The translations under genes were made by a program, and so were the position numbers. This document shows positions 8,883-12,117 of a stretch of 64,000 bases of DNA, one piece after another. The notes under the pieces were generated by a model that saw only the letters and a program-made list of their open reading frames with translations, was not told the DNA's origin and did no database searches. How positions within the stretch are numbered: the stretch's first letter is position 1; each line of letters opens with the position of its first letter. This DNA is from Somniosus microcephalus (lineage: Eukaryota): contig CM126202.1 of the NCBI GenBank assembly GCA_052327205.1, forward strand, positions 400,086,001 to 400,150,000, in the 5' to 3' direction.

Positions 8883-11800
8883 GTAAGTGTTGTTGTTACT
8901 AATTGGACCATATTGTCAAGATAAACTTTCACACATCATTCATGATAGCAATCCATTACCCTGACTGGTAGATACATTGACTGAATAGCAACCAAGAAAA
9001 ATAATCAGCTGTATACCTTAGCACCAGAGATGACCGGAGCATTCTGACTGAACAAGTGTAGTAAGAAAGTAAGACTCCCATGACTAAGTAAAGACACTTC
9101 CTGAAAAGGATTGGCTGAAATAGTCTGACTTAGTGCAGTACTCTGGAGACAGATGTCAGCATCTTTCACCACATGCACCCCTCACACAGACAGTCAACAT
9201 TAATGGGAAGAAAGGCTGCATTAGCAATGCCCGAAATCACCATTCAAGATCCCAAATTTTGAGTTATACCTTTGTTTCTTCAGTGCTGGTTTGGTCTTGA
9301 GAAATGAACCGATGTACCAGATTCGCTCAGTTAATAAGGTGGCTTCTAGCAGTTGAATTTCTTTCTGATGTGGTTTAGTCCTGGATTTAAAGTGGTTATC
9401 ACCCATACTTCAAATTGTCATTTTAATATATGTGTATATAGATATATATATCTCTATATATACATATAAATATAACCTTTTGGAGAGTTAAAAGCCACCT
9501 TATGCAAAGCCAGTGAGGGGCAAAGAATGGGAGAAGGGGACCTCGTCCAGAGTGTCTCAGCCTATCATTCTGAGTCCCGCGCGCTTGCAAAGTGGAGTGT
9601 CTGCGCAGCGTAGCTGTCCATTTGACTTTGTGTATGTGTGCTTATGTGGGGGGGGGTGGTGGGGGGGGAAGAGGGAGGATGTACAGGGGGATGAAAGATC
9701 ATTGGGTAAAGAGTGCCTCAGCCCACAGGCCGTTGAATGGAGAGCTAACTTTCAGTGCATTCCACTGCGGCTTCAATCTGTATAAAGTGAGACTGCGCTT
9801 GCTCCTGGATGCTGCCTTCTTTATTTCAGCGGTGGAAGGCGATAGTTAGATGTTTTGTTCGATGAAGTATAAAATGAGATTTCATTTAAAGTTCTGATCG
9901 GTACATTTAAAAGACAAAACCAGCAGATTTGCAGTGTTGTTGGATTCTAAATTAGAACTAGCTCTTATATATGAAGGCCCTTTCTTCCTTGAATTTGAGG
10001 CTGCCTGGTACATAAAGGGGTCTGAGAATAATCCACCCAGACTCTCGTGCCTGGGTGTGTTTCCAATTTGGATAGGCAAAATTTATTTACAACCTCTCCA
10101 AACGGATAGGCGTAAACAAACTTTTTAAATTTACAAAATCATTTTTGAGTTGGGTGACTAGAAGCTTTCAGAGGGGACCACCGACTTTTATCTTGTTTCA
10201 CAAAGTTGGTGCCCTAATATGTCATTCGGATGCAGTTGTACATTGCAGCGCTTCGATTGCATGAACTGAAGCTAAACACATTGACTACATTTGAATATAA
10301 ATGTGAAATTGTATCTATTTTTCTTTCAGAAGATTGCATTTTAGAACAAATCCAGGAATATGTTGTTGGACTCTTTACTAACTATTTTGTCTTTCTTATT
10401 TGTCTTTTTCGTTTTCATGATTGATATTATACATAGAAGGTTTCAGGCGGGTGAAAGCTCTCCCCTGTAGGTGCCTCGCTGACCGGAGCTCGAGGCCAGG
10501 ATCTAGGGGTGACACCGTCTGCTCTTCCCGTCATCGACTACCCTGAAAATGAGATGAAATAATGGTAACGGGTTTGTAGCACTGCCACAAACAATTTGCC
10601 TCCATGCCTGAGTTCTTCTGTCTCGTGGCTTCCAAAAAAGTGTCTAAATAAATAAGTATTTATATTTACTTTTTAAAAATGGGAAAAACTGTAATTTGGA
10701 AGAAAAATTGTTCAACTTGATACATACATGTTTTTAAAGTAGTAGCCACTGTCTTAAGAGAAAACTAGTTTTAAAAGTAAAATTGGCAATAGCTCTACAA
10801 AGTACCAGTAAAGCTTCTAACTACTGATTTTGTTAATTTCTTTCCTCTTTGTTTGGTTTGCAGCATTCTGCTCTACTGATTATGCGCTGTGAGCCTGCAG
10901 TAACGCATAGGCTGCGCGGCGATGCGCCTGCGTGCGCCAGCGTTATTCATTAGATGACTGGCTGAGCATCTACCTTGGTTAGTTCTGAATGAGATGCCCA
11001 AGTGGTCCCCGGTGCCAGTTAATCCTGACTGGCATCAAAAGAACAATTGCTGCAGCATGGCCTTGCACAGCTGCTGCAATGTAGTGGAACACTTTTTTTT
11101 AATTTTCTACTTCTGTGAATTCTAGCTCAAGTTTTTTTAATCTTATTGATTGAAATAGTGATTTTTAGTTTTAATATTTGGCTTTAATGTTGATTTATTT
11201 CTTTTTGGGTACAGTGAAATTGGCATTGTGTAGTCCGTTCACAGCCTGGGCAAGTTAGCACCTGTATCTCTAGTGATTCCTTTGTTGCTGTGCCTGAGAT
11301 ACGAAGTGCTGCGGAGTACCTGTGGTAAAATCTCAGCTAGCTATCTACTACTCTGCAATTTTGCATCTGCGCATGCGGTGCGCTGTGCTGCGATTTCTTT
11401 TTTTAATTTTTTTTTTTCAAATCTGCGCCTGCGAACTGCTGGTGCCGCCACTGCAACATGTTGCAGAGCCGCGCATTGGCAATGGCGCATTGGCAATAGC
11501 GCTTTGCGTTACAGGGACCTTTATCCTCGTTCAGCACTGTCATTTGAGGTTGTGTGCTCTGCAACAGATTCTTAGATAGTAAAAAACCCTTGTTTTAAGA
11601 AACTCACGGGCAGTTGTTAATGTGTGCGATCAGAACCTTTTAAAATCCTTGGTATACTGAATAGTACTTTCTGTGAAACCTAAGCTGGTGAAGTCACTAA
11701 TAAATTTGTGAAGAAATAGGTTAATATCTGCTAATAAAACTGCTGCATAAACTCATTGGGTACAAAAATGCTGAAAGTGGGCAGGTTCTACAATTGATTT

Positions 11801-12117
11801 CTGCAGAGGACAGTGCAGAAGTTTTATCTTTTTGTTTAAAAAATCTGATTGTGGGGAAAGTTGAAATGGAAGACAGAGAAATGTATTATTCCACATTTCA
11901 TAACTGAAAAATGGCTGGCTGCATGTGGGTTGAGGGTTTTGCGCATGCTCTCATGGGGCCAGCGAGCGAATTCAGCGCTAGCCTTTGCTGCAGGTTCACT
12001 TTTGCCTGGTGTGAGAATGAGCACTAATAAAGTTTTCTTTTCCCTTCTTTCAATCTTTGTTACAAATCTCCCATCCCTTCTTCCTGGTCCCCTCTTGTTT
12101 CAATTAAACTAATTAAG
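8883..12117 (+). promoter_or_regulatory. OGT intron 4, orthologous to the mammalian detained/retained regulatory intron
   Basis: Lies between exons 4 and 5; 3235 nt; no recognisable TE; CpG/UGCG-rich blocks, cryptic splice sites and weak exon-5 acceptor. Confidence 0.75.
10864..10977 (+). other. Candidate decoy/poison exon in intron 4
   Basis: ttctaac branch-like motif, long pyrimidine tract and ttgcag| acceptor; weak TTG|gttagt donor; in-frame TAG at 10951-10953. Confidence 0.6.

Follow-up and report, generated by a model that had tools for sequence, protein, structure and literature searches.

Conserved decoy exon, silencer region and four predicted long-range helices in OGT intron 4 of the shark Somniosus microcephalus

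Intron 4 of the mammalian OGT gene is detained when O-GlcNAc is high, and a silencer and a decoy are involved in this behavior (PMC5588854, PMC7373989). The OGT locus of the shark Somniosus microcephalus raises the question of whether the same intron carries the same elements in cartilaginous fishes and, if so, which parts of it have been kept. In the sections of the human literature available to us, Park 2017 defines a 526-nt intronic splicing silencer (PMC5588854), Parra 2018 (PMC6097662) and Parra 2020 (PMC7373989) define the decoy, and Tan 2020 presents a poison-exon view with a 397-nt ultraconserved element (PMC7261177). The intron is also the subject of Govindan and Conrad 2025 (PMC12017769) and of PMC12894984, and it has been proposed as an antisense target (PMC12864184). 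A preliminary description of the shark DNA had dated the nutrient-sensing feedback to the jawed-vertebrate ancestor, a claim that had been made before and that falls short in depth: conservation to jawless fish, i.e. lamprey, was published in 2017 for the region that overlaps the silencer (Park 2017, PMC5588854), and the decoy has been described as conserved from fish to mammals (Parra 2020, PMC7373989). According to Park 2017, Drosophila has no element resembling the silencer. No shark OGT intron is named in the literature searched, and what is new here are four predicted helices (H1 to H4). Our main reading, to which we give a probability of roughly 80%, is that OGT intron 4 of this cartilaginous fish carries a conserved decoy and silencer region and works much as in mammals, with H4 predicted to tune the competition between splice sites.

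The window, by which we mean the whole 64-kb stretch of S. microcephalus DNA that was analyzed, contains OGT exons 2 to 17, which were located by tblastn with full-length relatives, and exon 1 was placed by tblastn about 1.4 kb upstream of the window (L010:8570). The shark protein is 98.8% identical to that of Chiloscyllium punctatum, 93.3% to that of Esox lucius, about 95% to mammal and bird OGT and 91% to lamprey OGT, the clade labels other than the two named species having been assigned by us. In other vertebrates, an upstream alternative acceptor of exon 2 gives rise to an OGT isoform that is 10 residues longer; the corresponding acceptor at 6150–6187 looks unusable, with an in-frame TAA directly before exon 2. 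All features described below lie on the plus strand unless noted. Exon 4 (8814–8882, 69 nt) encodes 23 of 23 residues of human OGT 155–177 and ends in a strong donor (AAG/GTAAGT), and exon 5 (12118–12234, 117 nt) encodes 39 of 39 residues of human OGT 178–216. Between them lies intron 4 (8883–12117, 3235 nt), a phase 0 intron with GT..AG borders and without interspersed repeats. The flanking exon peptides and the exon mapping thus agree with the earlier assignment of 8883–12117 to OGT intron 4.

A search of intron 4 against the whole 6.45-Gb genome returned the self-match and an (AT)n tract at 9426–9474, and nothing else. This microsatellite, to which no strand is assigned, is the sole repeat of the intron and sits within the loop of H2. 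Coverage by a 400-kb genome sample was 0%, and the longest repeat-free stretch of the window (6926–13331, 6406 nt; runner-up 3048 nt) includes intron 4. The whole-genome search passes over very common words, yet it recovered repeats in intron 3 (26 non-self matches, representing old repeat traces) and in intron 5 (12,129 first-look candidates). The window includes 17 intron stretches, of which 14 had matches to the 400-kb sample and three, introns 3, 4 and 7, had none; intron 2 was covered to 64%. The earlier statement that intron 4 lacks transposable elements is therefore borne out, while the companion statement that its neighbors are expanded by such elements holds in part: introns 5 (3762 nt) and 2 bear repeats, but intron 3 (1551 nt) is shorter than intron 4 and intron 2 is merely 681 nt long. 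Elsewhere in the window, a young high-copy repeat occupies 14839–15430 in intron 5, with copies across the genome that are about 95% identical; judged by eye, we take it to resemble the 3' end of a LINE. A 29-nt tandem repeat with 5.7 copies lies near the start of intron 8 (24579–24741), and the repeat-rich part of intron 13 at 45922–48714 contains long stop-free frames of 390 aa on the plus and 450 aa on the minus strand, which are probably transposon remnants.

The human intron 4 measures 3.3 kb (PMC7373989), in line with the figure of about 3.3 kb given earlier, and its counterpart in the tetrapod locus introduced below measures 2962 nt. The length match with human is weak evidence on its own, because introns 2 and 3 of the shark gene are also short. 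Together with the supposedly weak exon-5 acceptor, the length argument is the weakest part of the preliminary description, in which the decoy was not located.

For comparison we used locus L009, the single locus returned by a metagenome scan with the decoy-donor pattern, which carries OGT exons 3 to 6. Over 169 residues its OGT is identical to the proteins of lungfish, mammals, birds and squamates, and a single residue separates it from three sequences of cartilaginous fishes and two of teleosts. Because it matches the human morpholino in full but leaves two human intron primers unmatched, its sequence points to a non-human tetrapod, likely an amniote. Intron 4 of the shark aligns with intron 4 of this locus in 8 colinear blocks (best E 1.8e-55), and the other 11 of the 12 intron pairings between the window and L009, introns 3 and 5 included, gave 0 matches; the conservation is thus specific to intron 4. 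It amounts to about 1.2 kb in 7 blocks out of 3.2 kb, so that the expectation that this sequence can pinpoint the essential elements proved justified to that extent. In a related organism (A), the 39 listed substitutions (41 in total) divide into 6 among the 813 bases of the blocks and 33 among 1396 bases elsewhere (Fisher P=0.004), i.e. substitutions are about three times rarer within the conserved blocks than outside. What emerges from the comparison is a set of four predicted helices, a distant branch point, two additional acceptors that are conserved and a 34-nt stretch that may be a mini-exon, and each of the candidate elements within these approximately 1.2 kb is testable in existing human reporters.

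The decoy and silencer region that the preliminary description had invoked was found in the window and aligns to the tetrapod locus. The 3' splice region of the decoy (10378–10439) comprises the branch motif CTAAC (10378–10382), a pyrimidine tract and tandem TAG/AAG acceptors ending at 10436 and 10439. It is followed by the decoy or poison exon (10437–10571), whose two donors, after 10564 and 10571, allow forms of 125, 128, 132 and 135 nt. An in-frame TGA at 10452–10454 creates an early stop at codon 5 in all four shark forms, and this stop is also kept in L009. The spacing, 3 nt between the acceptors and 7 nt between the donors, is that of the human decoy, for which forms of 143, 146, 150 and 153 nt are given (coordinates from PMC12017769). 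The L009 forms are 142, 145, 149 and 152 nt long, and these lengths ruled out a conserved decoy length frame, which the comparison of the window with human had suggested. The target site of a morpholino that was designed to block the decoy donors in human (PMC7373989) has a single match in the window, at 10562–10588 with a 2-nt insertion, and matched 0 of 100 shuffles. The human primer NC2144 is matched at 10423 in 21 of 25 positions (23 of 25 in L009), and a second human primer at the upstream edge of the silencer in 15 of 20 positions at 10464; primers NC2251 and NC1770, sought in the window and in L009, have no counterpart (12–13 of 20).

Like the human detained intron, the shark intron is thus orthologous, of similar length and equipped with tandem acceptors and donors, a premature stop and a near-identical donor region, and a retained form is found in RNA-derived contigs. 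Unlike the human decoy, that of the shark is 18 nt shorter and carries a 2-nt insertion after the second donor. It is conceivable that the decoy and retention are ancestral and that mammals or amniotes acquired the O-GlcNAc feedback later, retention in this fish being constitutive or tied to another cue. The published O-GlcNAc perturbation data in the sources available to us come from human and mouse cells, the shorter shark decoy is poorly conserved in its central third, and the downstream boundary primer of the human silencer is unmatched in the window (13 of 20), all of which would fit such a late origin. However, all splice signals of the decoy and its flanking blocks are kept across nearly the whole jawed-vertebrate span, for which the known function would be the simplest explanation, and we regard a late origin of the feedback as improbable.

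The equivalent of the human silencer was placed at 10489–11030, its 5' end being set by a conserved restriction site and its 3' end estimated from the 526-nt human length via L009. Several cryptic splice sites had been noted in the intron before; they are present, and several are conserved in L009. A conserved candidate acceptor at 9810–9829 consists of a pyrimidine tract and an AG at 9828–9829, and a second conserved candidate at 10818–10863 (AG 10862–10863) ends 25 nt before an arm of H4. In the loop of H4, a conserved block at 11499–11554 has AG..GT borders around 34 nt (11515–11548) in both species and is a candidate second mini-exon. The motif GCGC occurs 16 times in intron 4, 14 times in intron 4 of L009 and 0 times in introns 3 and 5 of L009, but this enrichment was not taken as evidence because intron 9 of the window is equally rich. 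A short motif resembling the double donor of the decoy lies in intron 5 at 12279–12295, about 45 nt past the exon-5 donor, and is absent from that position in L009.

The acceptor region of exon 5 (12024–12117) had been called weak. Its final 17 nt are indeed purine-rich and end in AAG, but upstream of them stand a long tract with 84% pyrimidines and a conserved distant branch motif, CTAAT, with its A at 12027, 90 nt upstream, followed by an AG-free zone of 85 nt. The layout is the same in L009, which has a CTAAC branch motif and likewise an 85-nt AG-free zone. With a far branch motif, a long tract and an AG-free zone, the acceptor looks like one of the distant-branch-point type rather than a simply weak one, and the sequence suggests that position 12027 is used as the branch point.

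The 3' end of the intron could also be conserved as code for the N-terminus of a mitochondrial OGT isoform (mOGT), since in human the start proposed for mOGT is situated 150 bp upstream of the exon boundary, within the conserved block (PMC4901358). The frame of exon 5 nevertheless has a stop in this block, with no ATG between the stop and exon 5 in either the window or L009, and the ORF is broken in most mammals (PMC4901358), which leaves this explanation scarcely credible. A coding extension was rejected, as no ATG-started frame is open into exon 5 in the window or L009. The block with the proposed mOGT start (11977–12079) is itself conserved between fish and the tetrapod locus (E 5e-12); no homology was found for it in zebrafish (PMC4901358).

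Retention of intron 4, which the preliminary description had proposed to look for in RNA reads, was found in a related species. Read mapping covered 9690–14500, the exon 4–5 junctions lying outside that stretch, and the data sets X1 and X12 were taken as RNA by guess, their exon 5–6 join showing splicing. Contig 1 of X1 (related species, 6292 nt) runs unbroken over 9690–12235 and on into exon 6, with intron 4 kept and intron 5 spliced, and shows retention for the 3' three quarters of intron 4. Its length suggests that the upstream introns are spliced in this transcript. In X12, an intron-4 contig (9704–10684) has a depth of 15.7 and a separate exon 5–6 contig a depth of 144.8. The stranded same-species library X23 has reads in 15 of 15 bins of intron 4, exclusively on the sense strand, at depths of 0.4–12.9 (mean 3.6). 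For intron 5 of the same library, the first three bins are 0 and 9 of 14 bins are non-zero, partly through repeat cross-mapping; the exon-5 depth of 2.15 is below the intron-4 mean, but possible filtering of reads makes the depth over exons unreliable. In X22, no reads fell on intron 4 or exon 5, and none on OGT, in the 24% of the run that was examined. No decoy splice junctions were listed at a threshold of 3 reads, at low depth and without decay inhibition, with 109 loose ends not itemized.

Sequence in the same human intron has been read in another way. uc.475 and EvoFold.36852 were proposed as short noncoding transcripts (PMC3895275), and a review ascribes enhancer-like activity to HINCUT-1 DNA (PMC5547530); the blocks might accordingly owe their conservation to a separate noncoding RNA or to a DNA enhancer (uc.475/HINCUT-1) and not to splicing. 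No Rfam family, intronic snoRNAs and miRNAs included, was matched by a covariance model at its gathering score in the window or L009, and relaxing the search to E<=1 gave a chance match to the (AT)n tract only. Moreover, conservation is highest at the splice signals, the X1 contig runs without a break into exons 5 and 6, and the transcribed strand pairs better than its complement in all 8 duplexes, as selection acting on RNA would predict, although the G/T bias of the intron contributes to this difference. We therefore consider a noncoding RNA or enhancer function of the blocks very unlikely, and splicing remains the preferred reading.

When the aligned blocks were scanned for helices that could form in both species, most of the conserved blocks other than the decoy were found to be complementary to one another, giving four predicted helices, which are mutually nested. 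The arms of H1 (9284–9312 and 9898–9925) span 640 nt and show one C-G/U-A double change relative to L009. Those of H2 (9334–9350 and 9487–9503) share an invariant 10-bp core. In H3, 9591–9623 would pair with 9735–9766, the latter including a CTAAC branch-like motif, and six one-sided and two two-sided changes keep the pairing. H4 spans 1.1 kb: its 5' arm (10889–10917, core 10889–10902) lies within the silencer region and its 3' arm (11975–11999, core 11986–11999) outside of it, ending 28 nt before the branch A. The 14-bp core of H4 has predicted energies of -23.8 and -23.6 kcal/mol in the two species and contains one G-U/U-G double change and one U-G/U-A change relative to L009.

Several results suggest that the four helices are probably real. 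In block shuffles that preserved composition, conservation and chunks of 1–6 columns, the strength of H4 was reached in 0 of 500 cases and four helices at -13 kcal/mol or better in 0 of 200. There are 24 jointly possible helices on the sense and 4 on the antisense strand, and the best partner across introns 3 to 5 was the orthologous arm in 8 of 8 arm/species tests, with arms chosen post hoc. H1 to H3, nested in the upstream half of the intron, were recovered by RNAalifold. Local hairpins with z below -2 were dropped, being mostly non-corresponding between the species.

The helices could instead be by-products of composition and conservation, with the decoy model holding and the outer blocks serving as protein-binding sites or extra decoy splice sites. 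For the helices, covariation between the two sequences is not significant alone (of 13 changed pairs, 8 remain able to pair, against 5.2 under the null; P=0.087), and the covariation counts of H1 to H3 were reached by 54 of 500 shuffles. In independent folds of the whole intron, H2 alone appeared in both species, H4 in the window only and H1 and H3 in L009 only, and no pairing is needed to account for those parts of the blocks that contain the AG acceptors conserved at 9829, 10863 and 11514. Such by-products would, however, have to account for the shuffles never attaining H4 or the set of four, for the mutual nesting of the helices and for the mismatch that opens when the H4 arms are swapped between species. 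We regard this explanation as rather unlikely.

Conserved long-range intronic helices beside an unproductive exon have parallels in the PCCR set (PMC8052449) and in the poison exons of BRD2 and BRD3 (PMC10789245), as far as the accessible sections of these sources describe them. For human OGT intron 4, the passages of the literature available to us describe no long-range helices, and no description of long-range pairing in this intron was found in the literature searched. OGT is absent from the main-text hit counts and five supplements of PMC8052449, whose three large catalogue files may list these pairs; it is also absent from the main text of PMC11838218. Local structure in the upstream half is already partly catalogued, since an EvoFold structure was noted in the human intron. 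Like the shark elements, uc.475/HINCUT-1 and EvoFold.36852–36854 lie in intron 4, and a conserved structure was predicted there upstream of uc.475, at a distance of about 600 bp (PMC3895275), a position that would roughly correspond to H2/H3. Those elements are local folds read as separate noncoding transcripts, whereas H1 and H4 are predicted to be long-range and are read here as splicing elements.

In the mechanism that we propose, nuclear detention, decay of the decoy-included form, the O-GlcNAc response and a role of SFSWAP are carried over from mammalian work. By analogy, the weak splice sites of the decoy would engage the exon-4 donor and the exon-5 acceptor unproductively and stall the spliceosome; at high O-GlcNAc, intron 4 would be kept, the transcript detained and OGT output lowered, and the rare decoy-included form would be destroyed via its early stop. 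H1 to H3 may fold the upstream half of the intron, while H4 may loop out 1.1 kb downstream of the decoy. The decoy donor and the branch point of exon 5, which are about 1450 nt apart along the intron, would then be separated by only about 340 nt, and H4 could thereby tune the competition between decoy and productive sites.

The human reporter data that are accessible bear on the weight of the individual helices. Nucleotides 798–1285 in the human reporter, which by our estimate hold H3, are dispensable for retention (PMC5588854). A human decoy fragment with only 143 nt downstream promotes retention (Parra 2018/2020, PMC6097662, PMC7373989); such a fragment would lack the H4 arm, and because it suffices for retention, H4 would tune rather than cause it. 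Blocking the decoy donors leaves about 20% retention (PMC7373989). When moved alone into beta-globin, the silencer represses but is unresponsive to drugs (PMC5588854), and the position of H4, with one arm inside the silencer and the other outside, fits this behavior. If H4 is read correctly, the isolated silencer would ignore the drugs because its pairing partner has been lost. It is a speculative extension, and one we think doubtful, that detention owes its O-GlcNAc response to H4 as the missing cis element, which would connect the silencer with the branch point of exon 5 within an ancient four-helix scaffold.

The 5' arm of H4 has a second partner in L009 (2465–2484 with 3204–3223), which is 85% complementary and lies just upstream of the main 3' arm. 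A further strong partner of this arm is present in the loop of the L009 helix; both point to possible alternative folds, which are weaker in the window.
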